From Octopus vulgaris (lineage: Eukaryota), in assembly GCA_951406725.2 (NCBI GenBank), contig OX597842.1:29078001-29142000 (forward strand): a stretch of DNA of 64,000 bases. The letters are read 5' to 3'. Under the pieces are notes generated by a model. The model saw only the letters and a program-made list of their open reading frames with translations, was not told the origin of the DNA and made no database searches. Made by a program: the position numbers and the translations under genes. Shown one piece after another: positions 15,654 through 64,000 of this stretch; position 1 is the first letter of the stretch; every line of letters begins with the position of its first letter.

Positions 15654-15669
15654 CATATATATATATATA

Positions 15670-15743
<74 letters not shown>

Positions 15744-15746
15744 ATG

Positions 15747-15813
<67 letters not shown>

Positions 15814-19719: not shown

Positions 19720-21187
<1,468 letters not shown>

Positions 21188-21844
21188 TATGAGAGAATAA
21201 TCTGTCATAAATATCACAATAATAGTGTGTTCTTCAAAATTCTGTGGATGTTAGTGTTTAGTTGTGTCACTATTTCCAGAGAATAATTTAATCTTATGTT
21301 TTATTCGTTTGTGATTTTACTTAATGTCTAAAATAGAAAATGTAAACTGTCAAATCTTTTGTAAAGTTATCCAATGTTAATCAACCTGTTAATTGATAAT
21401 CTCCTCTACATTCCAGACAGTGGAGAAAAAAAAATGTTGTTGTTAATTACAATGTCCAGAAATTTTTTCCCATCATTTGTTGAAGATCTAATTTATATTA
21501 AGAGGTGGATGTATTGATGAATGTTTCTTGTGGACGTCCTTCAGTCAAGGAAAGTCAATAAAAACATCAGAGGCACGTCTGAATGAAGAAATTTCTTTTA
21601 TGTCGACACGATGTGATATTCTGAAATAAGAAAAGAGGCAGTAAGATAAAGTGGATAGTTAAACAACAGAGTTATTCAATTTTACGACATCAATTGACAT
21701 CCATTTAATATCTACGTTTGCATGGGGCAGAATCCATTGAGGCATTGAAAGTTTTACAACATTCTGTATATAGATGAATCATTTTTACCTTTCTCTAATT
21801 ATTTATCTCTTTTCTTTCTCTTCTCTCCTTTCACTTGTTTCACC

Positions 21845-27445: not shown

Positions 27446-28180
<735 letters not shown>

Positions 28181-32793: not shown

Positions 32794-33835
32794 GGATCTT
32801 TACCTTTCGACCGGCAGATTTAGAAATAATTTTTGTAACTAAACACTTTCAAACTTCGTATTCTGGTAGAATGTGTCGTATAAAACATCTTTTACTCTTA
32901 GCGTTTTTGAGAAAAGTTTATATTTACAAAGTTATTTCGTGTTAAATTTGTTGTATTTCAGTAATTTCAACCAATCAATGATGTGTATTCAGCTGAATAA
33001 AATTACTGCTAACCCATGCTAGCATGCAAAGCGGACGTTAAAGGATGATGATGATGATGATGATGATGTTTGTCAACAACAACTGGTGGTATATATTTCG
33101 TTTGTTGTTGTTATTTATGACATCGTTCGTGCGTTTGTACTGGTTTTAGCTTTAAGGTGTTAGGGTTAGGGTTTTAGGGTTAGAGTTAAGGTTTTAGTGT
33201 TAGGGCTAGGGTTTTAGTGTCAGGGCTAAGGTTTTAGGGTTAGGGTTAGGGTTTTAGGGTTAGAGTTAAGGTTTTAGTGTTAGGGCTAGGGTTTTAGTGT
33301 CAGGGCTAAGGTGTTAGGGTTATGGTTAGGGTTTTAGGGTTAGAGTTAAGGTTTTAGTGTTAGGGCTAGGGTTTTAGTGTCAGGGCTAAGGTGTTAGGGT
33401 TAGGGTTAAAAATGTCTTACCGAAAATAGTAGCTGAAAAACAGGAAAAAACATAACTAAAACCAGTAGAAATGCACGAACGATTCTGGTGGTGCCATGAA
33501 GTAAACATGTTTCAGATAGACTCGTTTTTCATACAAACATAACTGAGATGAAATATGTCATAAATAACAGTGACAAACGAAATATACACCGCCAGAAGTT
33601 GTTGTTGACAAACAACGGCAGTAATTTTATTCAGATGAATACACGCCATTGATTGGTTGAAATTACCGAAATACGACAAATTTAACACGAAATAACTTTG
33701 TAAATATAAACTTTTCTCAAAAACGCTAAGAGTAGAAGATGTTTTATACGACACATTCTACCAGAATACGAAGTTTGAAAGTGTTTAGTTCCAAAAAATT
33801 ATTTTCTAAATCTGCCAGTCAAAAGGTAAAGATCC
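32794..33835. mobile_element. Foldback-type TIR element with ~300-bp inverted arms, central telomere-like array and 8-bp TSD
   Basis: GGATCTTTACC...GGTAAAGATCC termini flanked by perfect CCAAATCC duplications (32786-32793, 33836-33843). Confidence 0.9.
33150..33408 (+). repeat. Interstitial degenerate (TTAGGG)n array with 80-nt higher-order period x3
   Basis: Units at 33161, 33241 and 33321 are nearly identical. Confidence 0.9.
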
Positions 33836-34013: not shown

Positions 34014-34219
34014 TTAATTGAATTCTGATGATAAACATTCAAGTGCATCATAATATTCAGTTTTTTCAAGAGCTTCTTTTAATATTGGAAGTGTACGTTT
34101 CTCTGGATCATTATCGCGATACCATTTGAGCAGCATCTGGAAGCCTTGTTCCACAACGTCAAGAGGATAGTCCTGCCTGATGATTTCCAAGTCATTTTGT
34201 TTAATTCCTAATTCCCTTC
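34014..34219 (-). CDS. Last exon: death domain
   Basis: tttcttttgcag|GA AGG; [63 protein letters not shown]. Confidence 0.9.
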
Positions 34220-37200: not shown

Positions 37201-39482
37201 CAATTGAGAAACAAGATCAAGTTGAGTTTGAATTTTCTGTTGAGATTCTTTTTTTTTTCTAATATAAATGAGTGTTTCATTAACTTACAATGCTGAGTTC
37301 AATCCAGCCATGAACACAATCAACAATGGGGCCTGTCTTCTATAGAGACAGGAAATATATGTTGACCTGGGACTAAAGAATTACAATAAATATAGAAAAA
37401 CAGACTGGCCAGGGGAGAGATGACAACATGTCCCACACAATGCACACTCTCATTTTAAAAAGGTTACACTTGATAATGTGGTCCTCTTCACCCAAGAGAA
37501 AGAGCGATGGCACATCTGGAACCCTTTCCCCTTAATTCTGCCAGATTAAGGCAGATATCTGCCGAAATAAACATCAACAACAACAACACTCTACTAGTAA
37601 ACTTAGTAAAAGTGTAAACAAGCAAAAACATTGTCATTAATTCACCTGTTTACTCTTAAACAACAATATTTTTGAGTCCCCTTTTACAAACGATAGTATT
37701 AACTCTACTGGACCTTCTAATTTATACATTTTACAACCGTGCTGACGTCCGTAGATATTTTATGAAATTTCAGTGATAGCTTTACTTTATAGCTAAACTT
37801 TCAATTGGAAATTAGGAATGGAACCGGTTCTCAGTCATTCAAACAAACAAAAGTTTAGCTGAAAGTAAAATTTATAGAAATTAATTGGGTATTTTATACT
37901 CACCAAGTTCCATCCATTTACCTGCCAACTTTTGGGACACCCTATGAAGATGCTTCTCCTCTACCATTACAGACTCTGAAATAAATATTTCCAAATTTTA
38001 CACTTCATAGCACAATTTCCCGATCTCTGTTAATGGTTTATATATTATTATTGTAAGACATTCCTATCATCAATGGACAACTTCTGACCACTATAGGTTT
38101 GGTTGACACTTTTATACTTCCTACAGTGGTCCTATATAATGGCTCAATATTTAGGTCCATAACAAAATAGACTGACCTTCCTAAGCCTCCTTTTTCTATT
38201 AAGACATCCTACTTAATCTAACAATGTTGCAATCATCTTATTTAATGATCACATGTTAACACCTTTTATCTTTCTTCTCTCTTATATCCATGCTAAACCT
38301 ATGACATGGCATTGTCCCCTCACCACTGGACTTCACTTAATCAACATTCCCCTCATCTTTTGCTTAATTCTGATGTCAACCAAGCTGGTCATCAACGACC
38401 TTGACACAAACTCATGTCACACCTGTTATCTTTGTCAAACGTTGCTGCTTTTAATCTTTAATTTTAAACTATGCAACTCACAGTTCACCAGAATTTCATC
38501 TGATTCAGGAAATATTTAAGGACTCCTTAATGAAATGCTTCTCTTTCCTGATGAGCAATGATTAGTTCTACACAGGTGAAACAGAAAGTGATAGCAAGTA
38601 TCCTAAAACACTGTATACTTGCACAAAACATCTTTAACAACATGCAAATGTTCATACACAGATTATCGCAAAGGAAAAACATCTGAAATGGTACAAAAGA
38701 AGTGATATTTAAGAATATATTATCAAGATGGTGATATAGATCAAACTTCAAGCACCAAATCTTGTTTTTGCCCAGAAGTTTTGACTTGGCAAATGCTTAT
38801 TGCCCATCCTCGGTTTCTGCAATGACATCAATGCCTCTACTCTTATCGGATAATGAGATCGTCTACCACAGTCCAAAACGTTTTACAAGTTACTCTTTAA
38901 CCTTTCGCATCGTTTCTCCTGCTATTTTGAACTTCACTTGCTTCTGTTGACCTTTCACAAATGTCAGAATGCATTCATTATTTGTTTCAAACAGCATTCT
39001 TGAGCAATTAATTAGTCCATCCAATCTATCTAGGACTGATTGCATATACTTTGGATCTCTTGTTAGCATTTTTATGTCATCCATGAATGTCTTCTGAGGT
39101 GATTTCGCCTGAGTAATTTCTTCTCATAAATCTGCCGATCCCCATAACAAGCACAAACCAAGTGACTGATTGTGTGCAACCTACAGCTATTCCAGTTTCA
39201 ATGTTGGACACATGAAAATCTTTCTAGTGCTTGTGCCACATTAAAATGTACTCAGGACTCTTTATGAAGTGGTTGGTGTTGGGGAGGGCATCCCACCATA
39301 GAAAAGGTGGAATGTTTAAGGGAGATGTATTTCTCAAGCAGTCAAGGGGGACAGTAACTCTGAATAAGAACTGACTTGGACAGTGATCACCCATCCATTA
39401 CATGGAAGCAAGGAGAGCAGACTGTAAATGATGAGGACAATAACATCGATTGTTTTGTATCTTGCAACCAGTGTCCATCTTA

Positions 39483-39554
<72 letters not shown>

Positions 39555-42500
39555 AATTGTCTCAGCAGCAGACCAAAGCTTCTTACTTGGACAAAGACAT
39601 CGTTTAATGGATGTAATGATAGATTTACTAAGAGTGAAAAAAAAGACAGGGTGATCACACTTGTAAGCTTTCAGCTTAACCATCTTGTTCAACAAGAACA
39701 TCAACAACAATAATCAGTAAACTTATTGAAAACGTACAACAAACAAACACTGTCATTAACTCACCTGTTTACCATTAAACAACAAAATGTTTTTCTTCCT
39801 TCATTCAAAAGACAATATTAACTCTATTGTTTTTTTTTTCTAATTTAACCATTTTAGCAACAGAGCCAACACTGCTGGACATTTTATTAAATTTCTGTAA
39901 TATCAATATTTTAAATACAATTCATGTTGTTACACGACTGGAAAGTACAGAGGCTGCTACATGTAGATGCATAGAGAGAGAGAGAGAGAGAGAGATGAAG
40001 GAAGAAACAGGGAAGGAGAGAGAGACAACAATGAGATGAAAGAAAAGTGAATGTATCTCATTATGGGGAGAGAACAGATTCAGGGTTTATATTTTATCTT
40101 TTGTATTTTGGCCTCATCGTGAAAGACATTTTTCCTGTGTCTCATGTTTCCATATTTCTATAAAACCCCTTTATTGGATATTCTTGCATTTGTAGGTAAC
40201 GAATAGAATTACTTTTATCGCTAACCATTCAAAAGAAATGTAACAATGGAACCTGTTCTCAGTCATTCACACAAATAATATATCTCAGGTGAAGGTAAAA
40301 TTTATAGAAATCAATTACAGTTATTTTATACTCACCAACAGACTCTACTTTTTCTTTACACTTTGGACATTCTGAAATAAGAATTGGAAATTAAGAATGG
40401 AACCTGTTCTCAGTCATTCACACAAATAATATATTTCAGGTGAAGGTAAAATTTATAGAAATCAATTTCAGTTATTTTATACTCACCAACAGACTCTACT
40501 TTTTCTTTACACTTTGGACATTCTGAAATAAGAATTGGAAATTAAGAATGGAACCTGTTCTCAGTCATTCACACAAATAATATATTTCAGGTGAAGGTAA
40601 AATTTATAGAAATCAATTTCAGTTATTTTATACTCACCAACAGACTCTACTTTTTCTTTACACTTTGGACATTCTGAAATAAGAATTGGAAATTAAGAAT
40701 GGAACCTGTTCTCAGTCATTCACACAAATAATATATTTCAGGTGAAGGTAAAATTTATAGAAATCAATTACAGATATTTTATACTCACCAACAGCTTCTG
40801 CAACCATCTTGACTGCTTTTTCTTCAGACTTTGGACACATTGAAATAAGCATTTCAAAGTTTTATACTTCATAGTAAAATTTCTTTGTCTCTTTTAATAA
40901 TCTATATTCCATTTTTGTAAGGCATTCATATCATCAATAGTCAATTGGTGACCACTATGCTTTCGGTCAACAATTTCTAAGCTGTTACTATATAATAGTT
41001 CAATATTTAGAACCACAACAAAAGAGGCAAACCTTTCTAAATCTCATCTTTCTCTTAAGACATCCTATATACTAATCTAACAATTCTGAAATTCTCTCAC
41101 TTAGTTATCACTTCATAACACTCTTTTTCTCTTAGTTTTGTCTTTCCTTTGTTATGTCTGTGCTGGTCATATGACATGCCATTGTCCTCTCATCTCGAAC
41201 CTTCACTAACCAATATTCTTCTCATTTTCTGCTAAATTCCAGTGTCAACCAAACTGGTCTTCAAAGATCTGGCCACCATGGCATGACACATTGCTTCAGG
41301 AAGGATAAACATACCCCAGCTCTCATTTTTATATGTTACTGTTGGTAATCTTTAATTTTAAATGCCCACATCACACTTCACCAGAATACCACCTGATTCA
41401 GGAAAGATCTGAAGATATTTCAATGTCATTCATCCTCCTTAATAAGCAGCTTTTTCTTTTTCCAGGTGAGCAATGATTGGTTCTACACAGGTGGAGCAGA
41501 AAGTGATAACAGGTATCCTGAAACATTACATTTGTATAAAACCTCCTTAACTTAAAACTGTTTATCTACACATTATTGCAAAGGAGTTATATCTGAAATG
41601 GGACACTAGAATTCATTCTCAAGAATATATAAGACTCGCTAAGAGTCAGATCCTTAAACTCTCAGTTGAGATTTTGTCATTGAAATTCTTACATTACAAA
41701 GCTGACTGTGATGTTGTAGGAAGTACTGTTGTCCTTAATTATCAGTTTCCCAAGATACTTATAAATCATTAACCTCATATAAAAGCTGACAACTGAATAT
41801 AAAAAGTTGATGTTTACTGATGGGACCTTGGAGATTTATTGATATTTCATTTATATTTCAGTAAAATGTATTAGTCTTATGTTGCAGACAGTACTCTTTT
41901 GATGTGGGACAGGTTTCCTACTTGGATAAAGACAATATTCAGTGGGTGTAGTCATGGATATACTATCAAAGAGAAAAGACACCTGGGACATCTTTTATCA
42001 TACGTCTGTCAGATTATGACAGATCTGGGTCGATACAACATTATTCCATTCCCTAATGTCATGTGACAAACAGACAGATCATCAAATCATATTCTTACCA
42101 ACTCTCCTTTTGCTTTCTATACATGTTTTACACTTGGGGCATCTTTTAAGTTGATTTTGCTACAATCTTCACATAAAACAGTATGTGCACAGGGTTGTAA
42201 CTCCATGCTGGCTTCATTCACTTCACAAAGCATACATCTGTGGAAAAAACATAAAACACATCCCACCTATAACATTCATTTCTAACAAATATTACATGTT
42301 TGTTTTATGTTTACAATACAGAATATTATGAAACACCAGACTGACCAGAGTGAGGTGCATGGCTAAGTTGCTAGGCTTTTGGACTCATAGAGTAAAATTG
42401 CGGTTTCAATTCCTCGACAAGGCAATGTGTAAAGTTCTTTAGCAAAACACTTCAGTCTAGGTTTGCCCTGCATACAAACCTGCCCCTTGTTATAGGTGAG

Positions 42501-45500: not shown

Positions 45501-48094
45501 GTTAGCAAGCTGTTTTTATGAATGGAATGCTAGATATTCTAGAAACTTCCAAGAGAAACGCTAAGATACTTGAATAATTAAGAATCACATCTTATGACAC
45601 AGATGTTGTGAGAAACTTAGTGAAGCGAGGTTACTCTATAGGCTTTCTTGCAAGGGAGATCATTCAACTATTTAGCTACAGACCACTACACTCCTGATGT
45701 ACCTTTTTATGCCTCTTTTACTGTTAGCCTTTCTGTTTTTTGTGTTTTATTCTATGTATCGTGCATTTACTCCTAGCTTTCATAACGGTCTTTCTTTACT
45801 TGACTAAGCACTGCTTTCCATCCCCTCTTTTACCCTTTCCCAGTAAGTTGTAGTACACCTCAGCTCTGTATACATTATGTTATTACAATACTTGCATAAA
45901 AGATTATTTGCTAATAAATAAGTCCAACCAATGCTTGTCTATCGGATAAAACAGAGCTATATTTATACAGTTCAGAAATCAACATCTAAAGACAATATCT
46001 GAATTTCAACAGACAAAGAAAGTTATGCATATTCTCACAGAGAATAATGTGTCTTGTTCATCAGCAGCTAACAAATATATGGCAAAGTAACAGCTAAAAC
46101 TTATGAAATACAGGAGTCTAATGTGACCAAGAAGCCTAAAAGACTAAGAATGGTATAGGTGTTACCAGAACGATTTATGTTTCCTGGCAATTTTATTCTG
46201 TGAAGATGTGTGTCAGTGTTCTAGCAATATTAACAGAAATATGTGTGTGTGTGTGTGTGTACATAGACTTGGTGACCCTGCCAGTGCTGGGGCCACATAA
46301 AAAGCATCCCGTCCACACTGTAAAATGGCTGGCATTTGGAAGGACATCCAGCTGTAAAAACCATTCCAAAGCTGGCCTTGCCTGCGCTGGTGTTACTCAG
46401 TCCACTCTGCTGGGCATGCCAAAACAGACAGAAGTTTGGTGTAGACTTCTGGCGGGCTCCCTTTCAAACCATCCAACTCATGCCAGGATGGAAACGGACG
46501 TTAAGCAATGATGATAATGATGTTGATGATATATATACACACACTGTTTGGGTGTGTAGTTTATTTTCTTATGAAACCTTTCAGAATAATGAACTGATTG
46601 GAACAGAGAAGAGAGAGAACATGTTGGTAGACAGATTAATTTCATTTGTTTTTATGTAACAACTTCAAAATCTGTTCATTCACTTCACTGTTTAGTTCTA
46701 CATTTTCTTATTGGTCACAAATCTTTAAAATAGGGAACTAAGAAAGGTAGATGGGTGGTGGTAGACAGTGAGGTACAACTACCAACCCAAACAGTGCTCT
46801 TCATTGGATCACATAACAACTGCATTTTGTTTATTGTTCTTCATACTATTGTTGTGTGGCCTTTGATCAAGACACTATGGCAGTATAATGTATTGGTAGA
46901 ATTAAAATTAAACAAACATAAACATGATTATATACAAAATAGAAAATAAACTGTCACTGCCAACGAATACTTACTTTTGTGGGGGGAATAATTCTTTAAA
47001 TTTTTCTTTCAAATCTGCATCCCCAATGAGGTCCAATGGAGCTACATTCTCATTATTTTTCCTGTACAAGTTGGCCCCCTGGTGGGCTAGATAGCCAGCG
47101 ACTCCTACACCAGAGAGCCTCTTTTCGGTCGGCAACCCAAGCTTAGCACAGCACTACAAATGACAAAGTATAAAATGATGATTACAATATTTCACAAATA
47201 TACTTCGTAGATACCCAAATTACACAACAGTTCAACTACGTATACAAATAGTTTGTATCTCCAGCGCTTAAACTGATTGCACAATATTAAGTTCCGACAT
47301 CATCTCTAATTGAATCCATTTCCCATTTTCATTTGTTTTTAGTCTATTCTCAACATTATGACATATTTTATATATATGGTCATTATATTAAACAGAACAA
47401 ACATTACTGATTAACATCAAGTTTATTGGTAATTAATGCGTAAATAATCATTTGCCAATCACAAATATCACAAGATATTCAATAAAAAACAATTTAAAAC
47501 CAAATCATAGCATCAAGTCAAATATATGGAATATAATGGAACAAACATCACAAATATTAGAACACAACAAACTATCTATTCAACTAGCTTGGTGAATCCA
47601 TAAATGGCCATCACACAAGAAATATGGAGGAGTATTGTATATATAAATATAACACAACAACATGACAGCAAACAAGTTACATGAGAACTGAGAATACTTA
47701 GAACAGACACAACAACAAAAGCAACACCACACAGACATATCCAAAAATAACAACGTTTCCATAATTAATAAAGAAACTTCTTTGGATAATGAAGGTGAAG
47801 TAAAGGAAGTAAGAATTAGTGTCACAGTTGAGGCAGCACACCAACACATTATAGTTAATAAACTGCTCAAACTGTTAGACAATTCCAGTTGGGTGGGTAG
47901 CTGACTGCAAGAGTGGCTTCTTCTCACCAAAGTAGACATTACTACAATTTACATATGATCATCAAATGTCTGAAATAGAGTCACACATCAGTAGTGACCT
48001 TTATTTATACGGGAATCAAAGAGTCGATTGAATTCTGAAACAGTAGACAATATATACCATCAGATCTCCCGATGGATACATGTTGATGCATTTG

Positions 48095-48146
<52 letters not shown>

Positions 48147-51100
48147 AGAGAGAGAGAGAGAGACAGAGAAATAAATATGTAGTTGAACACACGCAACCTA
48201 CATACAGGAAAACACACTAAGGACCTTCGTTCATTGTATCCATTCTCTAGTGTTCTAACATTCAACATTGTGATGACATGTCTACAGGAAACCAGTGGAT
48301 ACACATTGTGTGCAAGATGTGTGATAAAGAGTCGTTTCGGGAAGAATTCTTCACAGAATGGTCTGGATGCATTTATCATGGCACCAGCATTATAAAGGTT
48401 ATCGTCTATCATGTCCCACAGACCTCTCCTCCTCCCTGTTTCATTGTTATTTGGGAATGTCTCCTCTTTGTCATTGGTCACCTTTCCTTCACACTGTGAT
48501 GGCTGTGTTTATATAGCCAACAAGATGGGTTACCTCCTTTACAGGGGAGAGAGCATGCCTTCGAGGGTGAAAGGAGATGGAATATAGTTAGTTACATAAT
48601 ATAACTAGGGTTATCTGGATTGACTGGATTACTTAATACTAATGGAAGAGAGGTGGATGGGAGTGAATAGACATGGCAAGCAATGTCTGCCCGTTTCTCT
48701 ATTTCTCTCTCTTTATCTTACACACACACACACACAAGCTCACACTTCTACTCATCCTCCTCATCATCATTTAATGTCCATTTTCCATGCTGGTGTGGGT
48801 TCAATGGTTCAGCAAGGGCTGGCCAACTGCAGAGCAGCTCAGGGTCCAATTGCCAGGTTTGGCATGGTTTCTGTGGTTGGATGCCCTATCTAATGCCAAC
48901 CACACACACATTCACAATCAATTTAAAAAACTTACCTCATCTAAAATGGTAATATGTTCCTTCTCAGAACAAAATTCCTCTTTCTCTGCTGCAATATGCA
49001 AACAATTATTGCCATGCTTGTCGATGGCATTCATATTTGCACCGCACGTGATTAGTTTGTGGACTATTCCGATGTGGGCTGCATACACGGCTTCCAGTAA
49101 GGGTGTTCTTTTATCATTGTTCGCAATATCCAGTTTCACTGAATCCTTTGTGGAAGTAAAAATAGAAATTGAAAATGTACATGAAAATTAGGGTGGATGT
49201 GACATTGCTGTCTTCTACTGGGTACTTGATCAACCTGATCATGTACATTTGATGTTTGTTAGTGTAGTCAACCTTCTGTAAGGTCCCTCTATAACACGCT
49301 ATGGATATTTGTTAGGGACATGATAAATCTATTAAGATGTCATAAACAGATTGTTTCAGCCTCATCTTCATTTATCCCTCACTATATAGTATGTTTTAGG
49401 GGACTAGAACAAGAGTGAAAATATAATTAGCAGATCAAGTCTAGTAAAGACGAATTATATACTTAGTGTAAGCCTTTCATGTTGCTATGTTAATAAGGGA
49501 TCCATAAAACGGGGGAGTTGGTTAGTGTCCACATCCTTACATCACTGTACATACAGTTGCATAAATATATTAACGTTATGGATGTAACACGCACACACAT
49601 ATATATACACACACACACATATTCATATAACAATCAAAATTGCCATTGAATATATATATATATATAATATATAAATATATGCATATTTACATAAATATAT
49701 GTACATACCTACATATATATATATATGTATATATATACATGCATATATGGGTACAAGACATAAAACAAACAGATCTCTTGGATCCACTTTAGACAGCCTC
49801 TCCTTCTCTCACGCGTTCTCTACATTTAGGAGCCTTTCATAGTGGCACTTCCAAGCCTATTTCTTTGCAGAGTCACTAACTGCAACGGAGCCATCATCCA
49901 TGTGAACACACTTCTCTCCCACAACATCACAATTTTCCTTGGTAAGCCAAAACACTTCAAATCTCTGGTCCTCACATTGCAAGACATTGGCAAACTTCTT
50001 CCTTTCTGCTTCACTCATGGCTGAGTATACCTGCTTCCTAGCTTCCTTTCTAACTGCCAGATACAACTCCCAGCTGCCACCACCCTTCCCATCCTTGTCC
50101 CTGTCAATTACCCTTTTCCACCACCACATCACCCTATGCCTGGCTGGGACATTGCACCAGCTACAAATTTGGTCTGAAATTCTCAGCAAGTTGTCCCATT
50201 GGAACTTCCACTTATCCTCAATGCTGCAAGTCTGAAATTCCTCCTCCTTCCCATTATATGCTTCATTTAGGACATCACTAAATTTCTGACTAATTGAAGA
50301 TTCCTTCAGCTTCCATACTCTTCCTTTCCAAACTGGCTTGCTTCTTGGAATCCTTCAAGCCAGTAGCTTGAACTCCCTAATGAGTAACCTATGCTGTGGG
50401 CTACATTCTTCTCTATTGAAGGCCTTTGCATTTACGAGCAGCCATGAATCCTGCTTTTGGGTGAGAATGTAGTCAGTTTGGTGAGCATGTACCTTGGATT
50501 TATAGGTTATCAAGTGGCTGGCCAGCTTTCTGAAGCAAGTGTTGCGATTATTTGGTCATTTGCACCACAGAACTCCAGTAGCCTTGCACTCCCCTCATTT
50601 CAGGAACCAAATCTGCGTCCCCCATGGAAGATACCTCGGTGCTGCCCAACATATCCATTGAAATCACTGGCCACGAAGATAAGGTCACAGTCATTTATCT
50701 TTGAAGTGGCCAGCAGAAGAGTGTCATAGAAGTAGCCCTTCAGTTGATTTGGCAGACCCAGTTGTCTGTGTGTGTGTGGGGAGGAGCGCATAGGACGAGA
50801 TGATTGTTGCTGTGCCTACATTGACTGCAGCTATCAGCATCTGAAAAGGTTGTTTATGGACACCTGTAAATAGGAGTTAATCAGGTATTGTCACCACCAG
50901 CAGTGGAGGGTGCCGCATCCTGGCATTCATGCAATGCAATGTTAATACAAATACAGGTAAATAAGGTAGGTAGACAAATACAGTAAGGGTAGTTAATCCG
51001 TTGAGTTAGGTAGGGAGAGGACAAGGGAAGTTGATTCATCATGTATTGATGGTAATGGATTAACGAAGCAATAGGGACTGAGTGCAGCGTACCCTCATTT

Positions 51101-51841
51101 AGCTTTGTTGCTGGGGACAAGGACTTTTAACTTTTCTCTGCTGCATAATCTCAGCATGCAATGTGTCTGGTACGAATAACTCTGTGTGTACATAAACATA
51201 TACATACATATATATATATACATACATAGATATTTATACATATGTACAGAGGGGAAAAAGTAGCCAAATAAATTATTGGACACAAGATAAAATGTTGACA
51301 CCAACAATGTACATATATAACATATCACACACACATACAACATGACAGAGCGATATTAAAAGATGATGATGATGATGATGATGATGATAGTATATATAAT
51401 CTGATATATATGGGTTGAATTCATAATGACCTTGTTTTGTCTGACCATTGAAGATAGTACTGTCAGCAGTGGTGGTCAGTTGAACTATCAACACCACTAC
51501 TACTGTCATCATTGTTATCACCAATATAATTATTCTTCACAGACCCAAGACCTGCCGCTTAAAGGCTGCTGCAGTGAAGTTGATTAAACCTACCCACCAG
51601 AATTTCACTGGTATTTTCATGATATTAATATTGAATATTAAAGACAGGATATAATTATGTATTTGTTAACTAACCTGGGCCAGCATTGAAGCCACCACAT
51701 CATAGTCTTGACTGAAAGTTATAGAAAGAGGAAAGGAAAAAAATAATTGTAATCAGATTAATTAAAACAAATGTAATTGGGTCATTACAACCTAATTACA
51801 TCAATAATTACATACACACATATACATATTATACATGTGTG

Positions 51842-53126: not shown

Positions 53127-55668
53127 CAAAATAAGAAAATGGAGAAATACACCTTAATCAATAATCAACTACCAGATAATACCCAATCACATAATTTATT
53201 AACCAACTACATATGAACATCAAGGTCAAACATAATAGTACAGAACAAAACAATGCACATCAATGAGTAATATGATACAATAAGTAAAGGAACCGAAACA
53301 TGTAAAATTCATAAGAAAATTAAAATTTATCGAATATAGTAGCGTTTTCAAACCTCTTTTTTACAAATATATATACATATATAAACAAATACATATACCC
53401 GAAAACAACCACGCACACATATATGTATATATATACATACACATACATACTGTTAACTAAAATAGTATTAAGAATCATTAAAATTAAGATAATATTAATT
53501 GTTAATACAACGAAAGGGGTTGGAAGGGCAATTCGTAATATACAAAAAAGAGGGGCCTAAAAGGGTAGAAAAAGGTAAGGGTTAATAAAAGGCAAAGGTT
53601 GGAAAATATTGAGATAAAATTTATAAGAAGGGTATAAACTCAAAACCCAGATTTACCATAACCAGTGTAAAGAAGATGTAGGTTATTTGCATAAGATACA
53701 TAATTAAAAATTACACCACATATTCCGTAAACAATCAGAAGACTAGGAAACCGTCCAGATATCAACACTTGTAAATTTTATCTGAATATTTTCCAACAGT
53801 AATCAGACACAAGAACAGGAGTAAAGAGGAGGACAATTTATTAAATGAACCCCTGGATATTACTGGTACAGATTTTGAGCCCAGGAGTTGAACTTGGAAC
53901 ACAAACGGATCAAAGTAAGGGGATGATTCTGCATTTAGCCCAGGGCCAGAGGAAAGAGGAAAATTTCAAGAGAGCGGGGTGGGTGAGGTGTTTTACATGG
54001 AATGAAAGGAAGAAGGGAGAGGATTTGAACCTGTAACGTTGAGGTAACGAAGGATGAGATGAAGTAAAGAATCCAGTCAGGTAACAACAACAACAACAAT
54101 AATTATGATGATTAATTAATGAAGTTAGATTACAGTGTCATTAGAGTGAGAGAGAGAGAGAGAGAGAGAGGGGTGAAGCATGACGACCCATGGTGGGATT
54201 ATGACATGAATGACTCGAAACAAGAAAACAAACATTAAAGAAACAGATTTGGATAATCCAAATCCATTGGGGACTTACTTTTGAACTGCCAGATGGAGAG
54301 GGGTGTCACCGTCTTCGTCCACCTTATTGGCATCGATGCCATTCTGTTGCAGGAGAAGTTCAACAACTTCCTTGTGTCCATGAATAGAGGCAATATGAAG
54401 AGGGGTGAGACCATGATTGGTCACAGCACAGATGTCAGAGCCATTCTGTTGCAGGAGAAGTTCAATAACTTCCTTGCTTCCATATTGACATGCAATATGG
54501 AGAGCTGTCCAACCATCTTCCTTCACAGCATTAACATCGATGCCATTCTGTTGCAGGAGAAGTTCAACAACGTCCGTATGTCCATATTGACAGGCAACAT
54601 GGAGAGCTGTCCAACCATCTTCCGTCACAGCATTAACATCGATGCCATTCTGTTGCAGGAGAAGTTCAACAACTTCCTTGTGTCCATTAGCAGAGGCAAG
54701 ATGTAGAGGGGTGAAACCATGATTGGTCACAGCACAGATGTCAGAGCCATTCTGTTGCAGGAGAAGTTCAACAACGTCCGTATGTCCCCTCTGACAGGCA
54801 AGATGGAGAGCTGTCCAACCATCTTCCGTCACAGCATTAACATCGATGCCATTCTGTTGCAGGAGAAGTTCAACAACGTCCGTATGTCCCCCCTGACAGG
54901 CAATATGGAGAGCTGTGAAACCATTTTCCATCACAGCATTAACATCGATGCCATTCTGTTGCAGGAGAAGTTCAACAACTTCCTTGTGTCCATTAGCAGA
55001 GGCAATATGAAGAGGGGTGAAACCACGATTGGTCACAGCACAGATGTCAGAGCCATTCTGTTGCAGGAGAAGTTCAACAACGTCCGTATGTCCTTCCTGA
55101 CATGCAAGATGGAGAGCTGTCCAACCATCTTCCTCCACAGCATTAACATCGATGCCATTCTGTTGCAGAAGTTCAACAATGTTTATTTGTCCATAGTAAC
55201 AGGCATAATATAGAGCTGTCCAACCGTTTCTATTTCGCTGATTAACCTAAAAAAGATAAACAATAAAGACATTAAAGATGGTGTTTATTGGGGGAAGAAG
55301 GAAAAAAAATGAAAAATGTCAGAAAAAAAGAATCAGATTAATTTAAACAGGTGGAATGAAGGTGGGGGGAAAATAAATGAGATTTATAATGTGTCTATAC
55401 ACACACATATATGTGTATGCATATATATATATATATATATACACTCTCGCACATACATATATACATAAATACCTATATATACATACGTGTTTTATATCTT
55501 CACTGATCATTTGTTTATGCATTTTTGTGTATATATGCGTTTATGTGTGTGTATATTTGTGTATGTATGTACAGGTCTGTGTGAGCTGAAGAAAAGTTTT
55601 TAATTAAAAACATATAAATATAAACTGTTTCATATACATATAACACAAACCAACATACATATCATTAT

Positions 55669-55710
<42 letters not shown>

Positions 55711-55875
55711 TCGCTGACCTGTAAATTGTTATTTTCTTTGCTATTTAACAGGACTTTGACTACATCTTCATAGTTCTTCCACACAGCCAGATGTAGAGGT
55801 GTTTCGCCCCATGAGTCCTGCTTATTAACATTTGCTCCCCTGGAGACTAAGAAGGCCACAGAATCCGTTTGGTGG
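34014..55875 (-). CDS. Ankyrin-repeat / RING / death-domain protein (Mind bomb MIB2-like E3 ligase with C-terminal death domain); multi-exon, 5' exons not identified
   Basis: Exons with canonical AG/GT and compatible phases: 55719-55875, 54279-55246, 51675-51711, 48936-49145, 46975-47153, 42099-42237, micro-exons 40638-40673/40487-40522/40336-40371, 37904-37975, 34014-34219. About 700 codons; needs +1 nt in the RING exon. Confidence 0.85.
36038..36903 (+). mobile_element. RTE LINE 3' portion (intronic, antisense to host gene)
   Basis: MLHGSETW...[13 protein letters not shown]...GRGRPRKTW, then family 3' UTR and (GAT)n tail. Confidence 0.9.
37904..37975 (-). CDS. Exon: first helices of the death domain (72 nt, phase 1-1)
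   Basis: tatttcag|AG TCT GTA...GAA CTT G|gtgagt; [25 protein letters not shown] joins RELG in the last exon. Confidence 0.85.
38740..39200 (-). mobile_element. Non-LTR retrotransposon RT relic (R2/Hero/NeSL-like)
   Basis: FMDDIKMLT...[16 protein letters not shown] plus an upstream GIAVGCT-like motif. Confidence 0.55.
40336..40371 (-). CDS. 36-nt micro-exon copy 3 ([12 protein letters not shown])
   Basis: cttatttcag|AATGTCCAAAGTGTAAAGAAAAAGTAGAGTCTGTTG|gtgagt, phase 1-1. Confidence 0.7.
40487..40522 (-). CDS. 36-nt micro-exon copy 2
   Basis: Identical to 40336-40371 including splice sites. Confidence 0.65.
40638..40673 (-). CDS. 36-nt micro-exon copy 1
   Basis: Identical to 40336-40371 including splice sites. 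Confidence 0.65.
40789..40839 (-). CDS. Related 51-nt exon ([17 protein letters not shown]) with non-canonical AA acceptor
   Basis: Intact gtgagt donor; acceptor reads cttatttcAA where the sister copies read cttatttcAG. Confidence 0.45.
42099..42237 (-). CDS. RING-HC finger exon with 1-nt deletion
   Basis: ttttccacag|A TGT...; [31 protein letters not shown], then +1 A at 42144-42147 restores [16 protein letters not shown]|gtaaga. Confidence 0.85.
43200..45190 (+). mobile_element. Heavily decayed CR1-type LINE
   Basis: Remnant motifs: [39 protein letters not shown], and a 3' end similar to the 8672 copy. Confidence 0.7.
46975..47153 (-). CDS. Exon: last ankyrin-like repeat before the RING
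   Basis: tttgtag|TGC...AA|gtaagt; [59 protein letters not shown], resembling the pre-RING segment of Mind bomb proteins. Confidence 0.85.
48936..49145 (-). CDS. Ankyrin-repeat exon (70 codons)
   Basis: ccacaaag|GAT TCA GTG...GAG|gtaagt; [12 protein letters not shown]...[19 protein letters not shown]. Confidence 0.9.
49780..50800 (-). mobile_element. Decayed RTE LINE fragment (endonuclease/linker)
   Basis: ASDFNGYVG and EDQRFEVF...DVVGEKCV, homologous to ORF 14913-15656. Confidence 0.8.
51675..51711 (-). CDS. 37-nt ankyrin exon ([13 protein letters not shown])
   Basis: Strong polypyrimidine tract ...aactttcag|T CAA GAC...CAG|gttagt. Phase 2 to 0 exactly bridges the flanking exons and completes the repeat begun by TPLHLAVQ. 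Confidence 0.8.
51810..53130. repeat. Long (TA)/(CA)/(TACA) compound microsatellite
   Basis: Visible low complexity; source of spurious ORFs longer than 400 aa. Confidence 0.95.
54279..55246 (-). CDS. Large ankyrin-array exon (~9.5 repeats; 8 near-identical 34-aa units)
   Basis: ORF 54275-55138 extended to acceptor ttttttag|GTT AAT; donor AA|gtaagt; 102-nt periodicity. Confidence 0.95.
55719..55875 (-). CDS. Ankyrin-repeat exon (most 5' exon found)
   Basis: ttcctttcag|C CAC CAA...CAG|gtcagc; [35 protein letters not shown]. Confidence 0.9.
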
Positions 55876-56029
55876 CTGAAAGGAAGAAAAACAAACATAA
55901 AACATCACATTCACTTAATAATTACATTAAATATACACTCGTGTTCCATTAAATGCATAAAAACCTATGTATACTACAGCCTCGTGTGTGTATATATATA
56001 AATATATATGCAAATATGTATGTATGTAG

Positions 56030-56753
56030 AGGCAAACCTACACAAATGTGCCCCAGGCGAATGTTTCCTTGTAACTTCTAGAAAAATGGATGTTTTTCAA
56101 TGAAATTTCTTTCACAAATATCCTTCAGATGGCAAATATTCCAATTATATCGGAATTTGTTGTGAGAAAAACCTTTTCGGTGGGTGGAGAGAGAAATTTA
56201 GGAAAGTTCACCCGAGTCGGCTTTCTTTCCAAAAAAATAGATATTTTCAAATGAAATTTTCAATAAAACCGTTTCAAATGGTGAAGATTTCGATTATATC
56301 GGAATTTAATATGAAGAAAATTATAAAAATTGGTGGATTCGCACAGATATACACTGACACAAAACAGAAAATAAAAAGATGAACTTTGGGAAAATAACCG
56401 TGATGTGTGTCAGTATGTATGTGTGTGAAACCATCAAATTTTTAAAGTTTTTTCATGTTAAATTCCGATATAATCCTAATCTACACCATTTGAAAGGGAT
56501 TTGTAGAAATTTTCACAGAAACAAAATATCCACTTTTCTGAAAGTTATAGAAAAACAAAACGGATTTGGGTGAATTTTGAGAAAGTCAACTCCTCAACGT
56601 TTGAAAATTTGTTTTTACAACAATTTCCGATATAATTGGAATCTTCATCATCTGAAGCATTTTTGTCAAAGAAATTTCATTAAAAAATATCAATTTGTCT
56701 CAAAGTTATAAGGAAACAAATTCGTCGTGGGGCCCAGTTGTGTAGGTATGCCT
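56030..56753. mobile_element. Foldback/MITE-like element with long imperfect inverted arms
   Basis: aggcaaacctacacaaatgtgcccca... versus ...tggggcccagttgtgtaggtatgcct; internal ttatatcggaattt/aaattccgatataa subrepeats are mirrored. Confidence 0.8.
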
Positions 56754-57226
56754 ATACATATGGACGCATATATATATTTATATATATATAAGCCTGTCTC
56801 GCGTTTTCGGCATTTCCTGCTTCATTAAGGTTTTTTTCTATTTCGAACCTCGTCCTGCCATAGAGATTTCTCCCTCGTGGGGTCTCCCTTCTCTCTCTCT
56901 CTTTCCCCCTCTTCTATCTAACACGCCAATCGTCCCCCCCCCCGAAAAACCCCTAATCTCTATATAAACCAGTGTTTGCTCGGTTCCTGCCTCTACTCGA
57001 TTCCTCATTGCTTTGCTTCGGATGATAAACTTGGATTTCAGAAATGTGCAGCTAAGATAACCTTGTTTCATTACCGTTTAGGCGCTGATCTCGAACCCTG
57101 ATACCTTCTCCCCTCTCCATTAACTATCTCCCTCCTCTCTATTTTAAGAATTTTAACCAATGAAATCCCAACATCTTCGAATTTTAACCAATGAAATCCC
57201 AGCATTGCTGCGTTATCGATATTGAT

Positions 57227-58040
57227 AACACACACACACACACTCTCTCTCTCTCTCTCTCAAACACATGCATATACATTTGCACAAGCACATAGTAATT
57301 AATATATAAGCGTACACACACATACAAACGACACACACACACACACACATCTCTCTCTCTCTCTCTCTCAAACACATGCATATACATTTGCACAAGCACA
57401 TAGTAATTAATATATAAGCGTACACACACACACAAACGACACACACACACACTCTCTCTCTCTCTCTCAAACACATGCATATACATTTGCACAAGCACAT
57501 AGTAATTAATATATAAGCGTACACACACATACAAACGACACACACACACACTCTCTCTCTCTCTCTCAAACACATGCATATACATTTGCACAAGCACATA
57601 GTAATTAATATATAAGCGTACACACACATACAAACGACACACACACACACACACACACTCTCTCTCTCTCTCTCTCAAACACATGCATATACATTTGCAC
57701 AAGCACATAGTAATTAATATATAAGCGTACACACACATACAAACGACACACACACACACTCTCTCTCTCTCTCTCTCTCTCTCTCAAACACATGCATATA
57801 CATTTGCACAAGCACATAGTAATTAATATATAAGCGTACACACACACACAAACGACACACACACACACTCTCTCTCTCTCTCTCAAACACATGCATATAC
57901 ATTTGCACAAGCACATAGTAATTAATATATAAGCGTACACACACATACAAACGACACACACACACACTCTCTCTCTCTCTCTCTCTCTCTCAAACACATG
58001 CATATACATTTGCACAAGCACATAGTAATTAATATATAAG

Positions 58041-58074
<34 letters not shown>

Positions 58075-58674
58075 CTCTCTCTCTCTCTCAAACACATGCA
58101 TATACATTTGCACAAGCACATAGTAATTAATATATAAGCGTACACACACATACAAACGACACACACACACACTCTCTCTCTCTCTCTCTCTCTCTCAAAC
58201 ACATGCATATACATTTGCACAAGCACATAGTAATTAATATATAAGCGTACACACACACACACAAACGACACACACACACACTCTCTCTCTCTCTCTCAAA
58301 CACATGCATATACATTTGCACAAGCACATAGTAATTAATATATAAGCGTACACACACATACAAACGACACACACACACCCTCTCTCTCTCTCTCTCTCTC
58401 AAACACATGCATATACATTTGCACAAGCACATAGTAATTAATATATAAGCGTACACACACATACAAACGACACACACACACACTCTCTCTCTCTCTCTCT
58501 CTCTCTCTCAAACACATGCATATACATTTGCACAAGCACATAGTAATTAATATATAAGCGTACACACACACACTCTCTCTCTCTCTCTCAAACACATGCA
58601 TATACATTTGCACAAGCACATAGTAATTAATATATAAGCGTACACACACATACAAACGACACACACACACATAC

Positions 58675-58706
<32 letters not shown>

Positions 58707-61530
58707 CACATGCATATACATTTGCACAAGCACATAGTAATTAATATATAAGCGTACACACACACACAAACGACACACACACACACTCTCTCTCTCTCTC
58801 TCAAACACATGCATATACATTTGCACAAGCACATAGTAATTAATATATAAGCGTACACACACATACAAACGACACACACACACACTCTCTCTCTCTCTCT
58901 CTCTCTCAAACACATGCATATACATTTGCACAAGCACATAGTAATTAATATATAAGCGTACACACACATACAAACGACACACACACACACCTCTCTCTCT
59001 CTCTCTCTCTCTCTCAAACACATGCATATACATTTGCACAAGCACATAGTAATTAATATATAAGCGTAACACACACAACAAACACACACACACACACTCT
59101 CTCTCTCTCTCTCTCAAACACATGCATATACATTTGCACAAGCACATAGTAATTAATATATAAGCGTACACACACATACAAACGACACACACACACTCTC
59201 TCTCTCTCTCTCTCTCTCTCAAACACATGCATATACATTTGCACAAGCACATAGTAATTAATATATAAGCGTACACACACACACAAACGACACACACACA
59301 CACTCTCTCTCTCTCTCTCAAACACATGCATATACATTTGCACAAGCACATAGTAATTAATATATAAGCGTACACACACATACAAACGACACACACACAC
59401 ACCTCTCTCTCTCTCTCTCTCTCTCAAACACATGCATATACATTTGCACAAGCACATAGTAATTAATATATAAGCGTACACACACATACAAACGACACAC
59501 ACACACACTCTCTCTCTCTCTCTCTCTCTCAAACACATGCATATACATTTGCACAAGCACATAGTAATTAATATATAAGCGTACACACACACAAACGACA
59601 CACACACACACTCTCTCTCTCTCTCTCTCTCAAACACATGCATATACATTTGCACAAGCACATAGTAATTAATATATAAGCGTACACACACATACAAACG
59701 ACACACACACACACTCTCTCTCTCTCTCTCTCTCAAACACATGCATATACATTTGCACAAGCACATAGTAATTAATATATAAGCGTACACACACACAAAC
59801 ACACACACACACACACTCTCTCTCTCTCTCTCAAACACATGCATATACATTTGCACAAGCACATAGTAATTAATATATAAGCGTACACACACATACAAAC
59901 GACACACACACACACTCTCTCTCTCTCTCTCTCTCTCTCAAACACATGCATATACATTTGCACAAGCACATAGTAATTAATATATAAGCGTACACACACA
60001 CACAAACGACACACACACACACTCTCTCTCTCTCTCTCAAACACATGCATATACATTTGCACAAGCACATAGTAATTAATATATAAGCGTACACACACAT
60101 ACAAACGACACACACACACACTCTCTCTCTCTCTCTCAAACACATGCATATACATTTGCACAAGCACATAGTAATTAATATATAAGCGTACACACACACA
60201 CAAACGACACACACACACTCTCTCTCTCTCTCTCAAACACATGCATATACATTTGCACAAGCACATAGTAATTAATATATAAGCGTACACACACATACAA
60301 ACGACACACACACACACTCTCTCTCTCTCTCTCTCTCTCAAACACATGCATATACATTTGCACAAGCACATAGTAATTAATATATAAGCGTACACACACA
60401 TACAAACGACACACACACACACTCTCTCTCTCTCTCTCTCTCTCAAACACATGCATATACATTTGCACAAGCACATAGTAATTAATATATAAGCGTACAC
60501 ACACATACAAACGACAACACACACACACTCTCTCTCTCTCTCTCTCAAACACATGCATATACATTTGCACAAGCACATAGTAATTAATATATAAGCGTAC
60601 ACACACATACAAACGACACACACACACACACTCTCTCTCTCTCTCTCTCAAACACATGCATATACATTTGCACAAGCACATAGTAATTAATATATAAGCG
60701 TACACACACATACAAACGACACACACACACACTCTCTCTCTCTCTCTCTCTCTCTCTCAAACACATGCATATACATTTGCACAAGCACATAGTAATTAAT
60801 ATATAAGCGTACACACACATACAAACGACACACACACACACTCTCTCTCTCTCTCTCAAACACATGCATATACATTTGCACAAGCACATAGTAATTAATA
60901 TATAAGCGTACACACACATACAAACGACACACACACACACTCTCTCTCTCTCTCTCTCTCTCAAACACATGCATATACATTTGCACAAGCACATAGTAAT
61001 TAATATATAAGAGTACACACACATACAAACGACACACACACACACACACTCTCTCTCTCTCTCTCTCTCTCAAACACATGCATATACATTTGCACAAGCA
61101 CATAGTAATTAATATATAAGCGTACACACACACACACACTCTCTCTCTCTCTCTCTCTCTCTCTCAAACACATGCATATACATTTGCACAAGCACATAGT
61201 AATTAATATATAAGCGTACACACACATACAAACGACACACACACACACACACTCTCTCTCTCTCTCAAACACATGCATATACATTTGCACAAGCACATAG
61301 TAATTAATATATAAGCGTACACACACATACAAACGACACACACACACACTCTCTCTCTCTCTCTCAAACACATGCATATACATTTGCACAAGCACATAGT
61401 AATTAATATATAAGCGTACACACACATACAAACGACACACACACACACTCTCTCTCCCTCAAACACATGCATATATATTTGCACAAGCACATAGTAATTA
61501 ATATATAAGCGTACACACACATACAAACGG
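57227..61530. repeat. Compound minisatellite, ~42 units of ~100 bp
   Basis: Near-invariant core caaacacatgcatatacatttgcacaagcacatagtaattaatatataagcgta followed by variable (CA)n(CT)n. Confidence 0.97.
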
Positions 61531-62211
61531 ACATATACATACACACACATACGCACACAAGCATACATTACACGTTCGTGTTTTGCCCCTTGCCGCAACA
61601 AATTTGCACAAAAGGTAAATAAACCAGGAGGGGGGGAGTTCAATGTTTCATCGTTTCGGGGTCGATAAATTAAGTACCAATTACGCACTGGTGTCGAGGA
61701 TTTTCCCCCCAATTTATATCACAGCTTCCGACAAGCTGGGGGCATCATTTTATGAAAAAATACTTCGCAAATTTTTACAATACGACTCACACTCCACGCG
61801 CAAACTCGAGACCGATTTAGGCATATTATTGTTTTGTTTTTGTTGTTTCTGGCCATTCAAAACCATGGGAGAAGCCTTTTTGGTAAAAAAAAATAAAGAA
61901 AATATTCAAAAAATATCGTTAATATTTTTATTGGGCGACGAAATTAATCGATTTAAGAAATATAGCTGTTATTTCTAGCACATGTAGAAGACAGAAGAAG
62001 AGGTAAATAATTTGAGCTCGAATGCTGCGATTTCATTGGTTAAAATTCTTAAAATTAAACTACGTTTAAGTTACGAATTACAATTTTGTTTTCAATTTTG
62101 TTTACAATAATGTTTTCTTTTGACACATTCTACCAGTATACGAAGTTTCAAATTGTTTAGTTAACTAGGAAAATCTGGCCCTCAAAATGAAAAGATCCTA
62201 TATGGATATAT

Positions 62212-62698
62212 ACCTGTGCATACCTTCCTTCTTGTGACACTTGTGAAGACCTGTTGAGGCAAGTGAAAATCAAATCAAAATAGATGAACATCAATGGAAT
62301 TTGTATCTTTGTGGTACCAGTGCCGGTGGCACACAAGAAAATCATCCGAACGTGGCCGTAGCCAGTACCGCATAGACTGGCCTCCGTGCTTTGGGGACGT
62401 AACAAACACCATCCGATCGTGGCCGTCCGCCAGCCTCATCTGGCACCTGTGTCGGTGGCACATAAAAACACCATCCGAGCGTGGCCGTTCGCCAGCCTCG
62501 ACTGGCACCTGTGTCGGTGGCACATAAAATCACCCACTACACTCTCGGAGTGGTTGGCGTTAGGAAGGGCATCCAGCTGTAGAAACACTGCCAGATCTGA
62601 CTGGCCTGGTGCAGCCTTCGGGCTCCCCAGACCCCAGTTGAACCGTCCAACCCATGCTAGCATGGAAAACGGACGCTAAATGATGATGATGATGATGA

Positions 62699-62701
<3 letters not shown>
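62212..62701 (+). mobile_element. RTE LINE 3' UTR with (GAT)n tail
   Basis: Matches 17570-17996. Confidence 0.85.
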
Positions 62702-62753
<52 letters not shown>

Positions 62754-63095
62754 AATATGAGCAACTGAAATGTGTATATTCATGAATGTAATCTTAATAT
62801 ACAGCAAGCAAATGTGTGTGTATATACATATATTAATAGGTGAAGGTATAATGTATACATATTTTCGACCCAGCAAGACCATCTTGAGTTTTAGTTTATA
62901 CATCCCACAATGTATAGCTTCTTCTCATGTCTACCAAATACTGCTTTTAGCAGAATATACACACATATTAGAGAGATCGTCACAGATTATATAACTATAT
63001 AATGAAGGAAAATCGTTTTGTGAAAGAGAGAATGTCTGACAATTATAGACAAACTGATCGAAGGCAGATTTCTCATCAATCCCAAAAAAAACAAC

Positions 63096-63599
63096 GGATC
63101 TTTTCCTTTTGAACGGCACATGGCAACACAATTTCTAGTTAACTAAACACTTTTAAACTTCGTATACTGGTAGAATGTGTTTATAAAACATCATTTTTTC
63201 TTGGCTTTATCGAGAAAATTCTATATGTTGTAAGATATTTCCACTTTAATTTCAAGCATTTCGGCAATTTTAACCAATCGCTGGAGTCTATTTGGAGTGA
63301 AAACATTCCGTGCTGTATGAATATGTCCCTCATTTAAGAAACAGATTGGGTTTATTTACATTTGCGAAGTAAAAAAGATACCCTTCCCCCACCCCTAACC
63401 CTAAGCCTAACTCACCCTAACTCTAACCCTAAATCTAAAATAGATTGAAATGCAATAGATCGATACTAGGTTTATAATTATGGGTGACAATTTCATACGA
63501 CACCGCTACGGAAAATGGGATTTTTTCGAGCAGTGTCAAATGAAAATGTCACCCATAATTATAACCCTAGTATCGATCTATTACATTTCAATCTATTTA
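63096..63599 (-). mobile_element. TTAGGG-MITE copy with rearranged, locally inverted end
   Basis: GGATCTTTTCC terminus, ccctaaccctaa repeats, and 63437-63508 inverted at 63529-63599. Confidence 0.8.
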
Positions 63600-64000
63600 C
63601 AGATTATTTACTGCCATAACAAGCTATAGGATCTTTCTTCTTGTTTTAGATCTCAAATAACATTTTCTTTGGAGAAAAATTGATCGATTTCTCCAAAATC
63701 AATATCAAGAGAGGACACTGAATCACACAGCGTCAATCTTAAGAACTGTTGGATCTCAAAGAATATCTCCAAAACAAAAAGAATCTGTTACGACAAGAAA
63801 TGATGAAAAAGATTTTTGTGATTCAATGAAGAGGATTCATGGAGAAAATGAGAAAAAGATGTTATTTGGTTACTACTATCATGTTGTTATCGTGTCACAC
63901 TGCCACTATTATGGTATCTTTGGATATTCAATTTGTCTGGAATTGCAAGAAATTTTGAAACAAAAGCAGATCTGAAGATTTTAGTTAATTCAAGCCTTAC

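Follow-up and report, generated by a model that had tools for sequence, protein, structure and literature searches.

An eight-unit ankyrin array in an internal exon of an ANK-RING-Death gene of Octopus vulgaris

Gene structure and genomic surroundings

The window analyzed here is a stretch of 64,000 nucleotides of the Octopus vulgaris genome (GenBank assembly GCA_951406725.2, contig OX597842.1, positions 29,078,001 to 29,142,000), and all coordinates below refer to it. It contains a minus-strand gene that extends at least from 55875 to 34014 and encodes ankyrin (ANK) repeats, a RING finger and a Death domain. Exons were located with family proteins as tblastn probes. Besides the exon that carries the tandem array, ten exons were found, all with canonical splice sites, and Pfam recognizes ankyrin, C3HC4 RING and Death domains in the exon translations. 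An earlier sequence-only reading had described a single-exon ankyrin array and missed the gene, the large Octopus family to which it belongs and a frameshift downstream.

The most upstream exon identified (55719 to 55875, 157 nt, AG/GT ends) encodes one ankyrin repeat (Pfam Ank, E = 1e-11) whose binding face varies among paralogs; tblastn with eight family proteins against 55880-64000 recovered no exon for repeats one and two. The array exon (54279 to 55246, 968 nt) is followed by a 37-nt exon (51675 to 51711, AG/GT ends), which completes the last repeat of the array, matches the family protein P0124 at 92% by tblastn and is resembled by loose ends of read contigs. A further ankyrin exon of 210 nt (48936 to 49145) is recognized by Pfam and by tblastn with family proteins, and an exon of 179 nt (46975 to 47153, 90% to P0124) encodes a degenerate last ankyrin repeat and linker resembling those of Mind bomb (MIB) proteins; it is here that the family profile matches structure 8v0e. 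The RING (C3HC4) exon (42099 to 42237, 139 nt, one base short; Pfam zf-C3HC4_3, E = 5e-7) precedes three identical 36-nt linker mini-exons (40673-40638, 40522-40487 and 40371-40336), whose peptide is also present in P0131 and P0132. The Death domain begins in an exon of 72 nt (37904 to 37975, 92% to P0121) and ends, with the stop codon, in the last exon (34014 to 34219; Pfam Death, E = 8e-8; 67-88% to six Octopus proteins). All these exons lie on the minus strand. Their order, from ankyrin stack through MIB-like linker and RING to Death domain, is that of the octopus family, and each exon matches its closest paralog at 76-100%, the closest paralog changing from exon to exon along the gene. That this is an ANK-RING-Death gene belonging to that family is almost certain.

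The assembled copy lacks an intact frame through RING and Death. Its RING exon is one base short of frame (tblastn aligns it in two frames), and translation ends ahead of the final zinc ligands and of the Death domain. As assembled, the copy is thus truncated, either as a pseudogene or through an assembly error. An annotated O. vulgaris model, P0133, agrees at 100% with three of the exons, and its end shows the same shift of letters; it may describe the same locus or a very recent duplicate, and for this reason it is no arbiter of whether the missing base is real. The reading of the family is independent of the truncation in this copy.

Several other features surround or interrupt the gene. 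The mini-exons lie inside a 151-bp tandem repeat (40235-40794) that multiplies them, and a related piece at 40840-40790 has no AG acceptor. At one O. sinensis locus, more than 20 annotated isoforms differ mostly in such mini-exons, so that the segment between RING and Death adds a second layer of modular variation. An older internal duplication (37570-38720 versus 39691-41630, 73-80% identity) comprises intron segments around the linker and the first Death exon. A remnant related to RVT_1 lies at 49774-50071, within an intron of the ankyrin gene, and a LINE-like reverse-transcriptase fragment (Pfam RVT_1) at 14379-15809. At 57232-61544, upstream of the most distal exon identified, AC and CT microsatellites make up a 99-bp minisatellite (42 copies), and immediately downstream of the gene a 20/80-bp tandem repeat with TTAGGG-like units occupies 33157-33409. 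Minus-strand C2H2 zinc-finger arrays occur at 19823-21250, interrupted near 20850, and at 27449-28180, with an in-frame stop at ~27834; they probably belong to a zinc-finger cluster in which some members are decaying.

The array exon and its proposed growth

On the minus strand, 54279-55246 can be read through 322 codons without a stop; the translation shows ten ankyrin motifs, and Pfam assigns nine stretches of its translation to Ank. The exon comprises a lead repeat of 33 aa, eight units of 34 aa and one partial repeat. The eight 102-nt units (54338 to 55153) are arranged as A B A A B A A B, with a higher-order period of 306 nt, and each contains a 26-nt invariant helix-2 block. Units 1, 3, 4, 6 and 7 are of type A and units 2, 5 and 8 of type B, with nucleotide identities of 85-95% within A, 94-97% within B and 70-75% between the types. 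The unit number, the 306-nt period and the recurrence of SDICAVTN in every third unit, all proposed earlier from the letters, are borne out. A framework anchor is found nine times at a spacing of exactly 102 nt, TRF reports periods of 102 (8.4 copies) and 306 (2.9 copies at 90%), self-identity is 92.7% at lag 306 and 92.2% at lag 612 against 75.5-79.7% at lags 102, 204, 408 and 510, and the motif marks the three B units. The residue variants that had been listed are all present in the units. At the protein level, units three apart share 79-94% of residues (mean ~88%) and adjacent A/B units 59-68%; internal conservation of at least 85% over at least 100 aa is attained through the units three apart. 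The framework had been called almost invariant even at silent sites, which holds for the helix-2 block (one change in 30 nt) but not for the remaining framework, where A and B differ. The lead repeat lacks, at 55166, one codon that the units have; contigs of all four runs mapped contain this extra codon.

The coordinates first proposed for the array are the exact ends of its exon. The array does lie within one exon, as claimed, but that exon is internal, with an AG acceptor at 55246, a GT donor at 54279 and no start codon, and the splice sites at both ends rule out a single-exon gene or a retrocopy. The best of five single-sequence AlphaFold models of the exon has a mean pLDDT of 88 (58-70 for the other four), with a helix pair per unit, and the exon model resembles ankyrin-B repeats among solved structures (TM 0.92-0.93). 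A homolog search with the array alone retrieves only generic ankyrin proteins (33-48% identity). The array is real, coding and more than a product of chance; its open frame, fold and codon-level pattern rule out a non-coding minisatellite.

Sequencing reads bear on whether the eight-unit array might be an artefact assembled from the reads of many near-identical paralogs. Read mapping covered 53800-56000 with four of the 24 sequencing runs listed, through short contigs in which paralogs are pooled. An artefact would agree with the absence of any contig spanning the array in the four runs, with a share of 0.59 of the words in the best run among those listed and with the match of different paralogs exon by exon. 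It would agree poorly with an array whose units are all distinct (85-97% identity within types) and keep exact register in an uninterrupted frame, and with paralog models that already differ in unit number, so that we regard it as hardly credible. Seven contig joints correspond to whole units, four to seven fewer than here, in contigs of ~100 nt that are too short to count units. The two DNA runs yielded 1264 and 874 mapped contigs, with single-contig depth from 16 to 1911 in run X2, and many family copies in the genome are likely. Variant letters mapped to codons (32 of the 40 shown, out of 62) are mostly replacements, within a selected subset where adjacent changes share a codon.

None of the listed runs is recorded as RNA; X8 and X15 are of RNA by our guess. 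In both, depth is found on the array and upstream exons, is zero in bins 55280-55501 and is low on the downstream intron, while four and three contigs, respectively, depart at 54278 into letters resembling the next exon. These patterns fit spliced transcripts of the family, without singling out this copy. In X8, two contigs also run from the end of the array exon (54279) into the beginning of the upstream exon (55875), and X15 has a similar array-to-upstream loose end at 54281. Since the two exons together measure 1125 nt with matching phases, this back-joint would come from a circular RNA or else from a paralog in which the exon pair is duplicated in frame.

The internal pattern of the array carries traces of its growth. 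The helix-2 block is a run of 26 nt identical in the eight units (permutation P = 5e-5), and in all four A/B pairs silent differences number 0 on ~7.5 sites inside the block and 7-8 on ~16 outside it. Because purifying selection on the protein leaves silent sites free, it is likely in the block that crossovers or conversions are resolved. Two units, 3 and 7, are mosaic, and 11 of 210 informative site pairs are incompatible. In paralogs, the homologous exon contains 0 (P0136, P0137), 1, 2 or 3 (P0130) inner units, as against eight here. The unequal crossover suggested by the sequence-only reading is therefore supported, in the wider sense of crossover or conversion, by the exact 102-nt register, the three-unit period, the silent-invariant block, the mosaics and the 0-3 units of paralogs, and we consider array expansion by one of these routes very probable. 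Growth would have proceeded from 0-3 units to eight by events at the helix-2 block, which may serve as a fixed anchor between copies of which a cassette of hairpin plus helix 1 is swapped; the order of units is consistent with duplication of a three-unit module. A-like and B-like units both occur in paralogs, so the unit types are older than this expansion. The sequence-only reading had overlooked this greater age of the two types.

The octopus family and its relation to Mind bomb

With the Death exon as query, six proteins were found among 120 candidates, and with the C-terminal half of P0124, 20 among 517, all 20 from Octopus. The relatives with names all belong to Octopus vulgaris, O. sinensis or O. 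bimaculoides and are labelled 'MIB2-like' or ankyrin, and half of the 20 matches sit on contigs of 34.56 Mb. In a profile search, 35 of the 150 relatives listed were inspected, two of which are unrelated ankyrin proteins; the further relatives named there are Octopus proteins in ten cases out of ten, and other cephalopods may have members as well. The Death domains of paralogs differ by 0.36 on average (nine ungapped rows, one of them misaligned), a value suggesting that the paralogs are not all young. In the divergent members P0197, P0204, P0217 and P0247, extra ankyrin repeats occur at a similar place; they are spaced by 33 aa, are less alike among themselves and, by a rough count, may be older independent expansions. 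Neither NACHT nor NB-ARC was detected in Pfam scans of family proteins (one scan covering the best five families for each). No publication on an octopus ANK-RING-Death family was found among mainly non-subscription papers, and supplements of cephalopod genome papers may contain tables of an ankyrin or RING expansion; the available text of PMC11431876 and PMC13218726 contains 'ankyrin' and 'mib' 0 times. The proteins themselves are already public under automatic names, and the label 'MIB2-like' hides the family.

The label is one of several resemblances to Mind bomb. In a feature search, used as a lead only, mib1-like clusters rank first with 155 of 256 features. The family profile matches the structure of the MIB1 ANK region, 8v0e, with E = 1.5e-22 over profile positions 3-129, a stretch longer than in all but one of the other 59 matches listed, and by this match an ANK region of MIB type is present. 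Compared with solved structures at E<=1e-45, P0217 retrieves only generic ankyrins. Both MIB1/MIB2 and the octopus family have an ANK stack followed by a RING, but the octopus proteins have no MZM/REP region, a Death domain in place of the last RING and many copies. MZM and REP families are absent from the precomputed Pfam domains of all 20 relatives, and full-length models such as P0160 and P0177 start at the ankyrin cap. The relatives P0217 and P0247 keep two RINGs, and the RING of the gene aligns with the first of the two (52% to P0217 394-418); the Mind bomb C-terminus, coiled coil and catalytic last RING, is replaced by the Death domain. Without MZM/REP and without the last RING, the gene is not a bona fide MIB2. 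Rather, the family would derive from a Mind bomb gene of which it retains the C-terminal half.

Such an ancestry raises the possibility that the family consists of substrate-specific E3 ligases, in which ankyrin repeats would pick host or pathogen substrates, the RING would ubiquitinate them and the Death domain would only dock on signalling complexes. It would be in line with MIB-like descent, with the C3HC4 RING that is intact in paralogs (Pfam E 3e-11 to 4e-7) and with the action of MIB2 on RIPK1 and cFLIP described in the available part of PMC7815719. In MIB1, however, according to the accessible text of bioRxiv 10.1101/2024.03.01.582834, substrate is bound by MZM/REP and the last RING alone is active, RING1 and RING2 being inactive. 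The retained RING is the first, by itself ligase-inactive in MIB1, and a signalling adaptor would by analogy be likelier than an active E3; moreover, the RING is degenerate or absent in some members (the first unit of P0121, P0126 and P0281). Ligase function is accordingly judged quite improbable, and a signalling adaptor is the reading retained below. Its output would depend on the Death domain, which, with P0125 as query, matches RIPK1 (9e-6), ankyrin-3 (4e-5) and TRADD (6e-4) among solved structures; these sequence matches are weak, and RIPK1-type and ankyrin-type origins are not separable by them.

Variation of the binding face and possible function

The sequence-only reading had also stated that changes concentrate at hairpin and helix-1 residues and had attributed them to diversifying selection. 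Contact positions were chosen before testing. The DARPin set comprises positions 2, 3, 5, 13, 14 and 33, which we take to be the contacts of these designed proteins. A second set (2, 3, 5, 10, 13 and 33) follows the available part of PMC4308713. The first statement is confirmed: the six DARPin codons, of 34, receive 18.5 of 35.5 minimal replacement steps (P = 0.0005), and 12 of 25 when only steps within types are counted (P = 0.011); silent steps show no enrichment. Position 33 is invariant across the array units. Under an MG94-type codon model (own script, uncalibrated chi-square, eight units and six codons with recombination present), dN/dS is 4.65 on DARPin codons and 0.72 elsewhere (p = 0.0002 for >1), and 3.62 versus 0.76 with the second set. 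Contact dN/dS is 3.2-7.2 in all seven fits (p 0.0002-0.011), including five stricter fits without the invariant block, the A-B branch or the mosaic units (3.2-7.2, p 0.001-0.011), and remains significant when codon 3, 5 or 13 is removed (p 0.007-0.033). When codon 14 and the invariant block are both removed, it falls to 2.4-2.6 (p 0.052 and 0.12). Support for the claim of diversifying selection is moderate: dN/dS exceeds 1 in every fit and loses significance without codon 14 and the block.

Paralogs provide independent support from outside the array, at the protein level and with some models possibly chimeric. In the upstream, non-tandem repeat (the window and ten paralog models), the mean pairwise difference is 0.52 at contacts and 0.10 at the other 27 positions (P = 0.001), positions 3, 5, 10 and 13 varying most (0.65-0.84). 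Eight positions that we chose as lying on the outer surface differ by 0.09 in this repeat, against 0.63 among 11 human ankyrin-1 repeats. The contrast is smaller among 18 distinct inner units of paralogs (0.73 at contacts versus 0.48), and contact positions are the most tolerant in any ankyrin repeat (0.89 in ankyrin-1).

The same observations might be explained by neutral turnover: in an unstable cluster, tolerant positions would vary and conversion would import tracts from paralogs, this copy being a decaying pseudogene. The frameshift in the RING exon, the interruptions in the adjoining C2H2 arrays, the mosaic units 3 and 7, the dependence of the selection signal on codon 14 and the near-neutral dN/dS of non-contact codons (0.55-1.3; near 1 within types) are all in keeping with it. 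Neutral turnover accounts less well for a 968-nt exon that stays open across eight units, for outer-surface positions that are equally tolerant yet almost fixed across paralogs while positions 3, 5, 10 and 13 vary by 0.65-0.84, and for dN/dS values above 1 that persist without the mosaic units or without codon 3, 5 or 13. We consider it unlikely as a whole. For the binding face in particular, relaxed constraint combined with imported tracts is the alternative to positive selection; positive selection is preferred, and diversification of the face by selection is probable.

In MIB1, the concave ANK face is conserved according to the accessible text of bioRxiv 10.1101/2024.03.01.582834, whereas it is variable in the octopus family, which would thus reverse the ancestral state. 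If selection diversifies this face, the family would act as a variable sensor or adaptor whose ligands change and whose signal passes through the Death domain, and since repeat number and binding-face residues both differ between copies, its members are likely fast-changing intracellular sensors. A role in immune or death signalling, suggested by the architecture, has somewhat less than an even chance of being correct. The account as a whole, with an internal exon, growth by crossover, a diversified face and a sensor or adaptor signalling through Death, is placed slightly on the probable side. A bolder version remains rather doubtful: octopuses would have made, out of the rear part of a Mind bomb gene, a large recombining, DARPin-like repertoire of intracellular receptors, with ankyrin cassettes swapped and multiplied through the helix-2 block and binding residues under arms-race selection, an NLR-like system without a NOD module in which ligand binding would cluster a RIPK1-like Death domain and trigger immune signalling or cell death.

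Other combinations of ankyrin repeats with a C-terminal Death domain are known from ANKDD1A/B, the ankyrins and further ANK-Death proteins, and ANKDD1 clusters are among the feature look-alikes of the octopus gene. As far as is known, ANKDD1 genes are few-copy and conserved. The octopus family differs from the ankyrins in having no ZU5/UPA and from ANK-Death proteins in the RING placed between ANK and Death. DARPin and ANK-N5C libraries likewise have a fixed framework on the same fold with variation at positions 2, 3, 5, 10, 13 and 14 (available parts of PMC4308713, PMC8229355 and PMC8683736); the octopus array is natural, with 34-aa units of two types, an invariant position 33 and binding that is putative. 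By analogy, the closest known regime appears to be that of fungal NLR ankyrin repeats, for which the available part of PMC4986451 describes high internal identity, variable repeat number and selected hairpin and inner-helix sites, such repeats being found in only 0.8% of ANK, TPR and WD proteins of animals. Podospora Pa_3_8560 and Pa_2_8180 share with the octopus array near-identical ankyrin units, differences in repeat number, concerted evolution and a concentration of changes at hairpin and inner-helix sites, and Podospora NLRs couple their repeats to a cell-death output to which the octopus Death domain may be likened by architecture (same source, same part). Differences are that the octopus array alternates two unit types and that the family is without NACHT or NB-ARC, has N-terminal repeats with a C-terminal Death domain as effector, and is found in an animal host.

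Immune recognition in cephalopods is poorly mapped, and the family offers a testable candidate for a lineage-specific receptor repertoire. If this interpretation is true, the concerted evolution and selection characteristic of fungal NLRs would extend to an animal, and a ligase scaffold would have been turned into a sensor, a natural counterpart of DARPin libraries.
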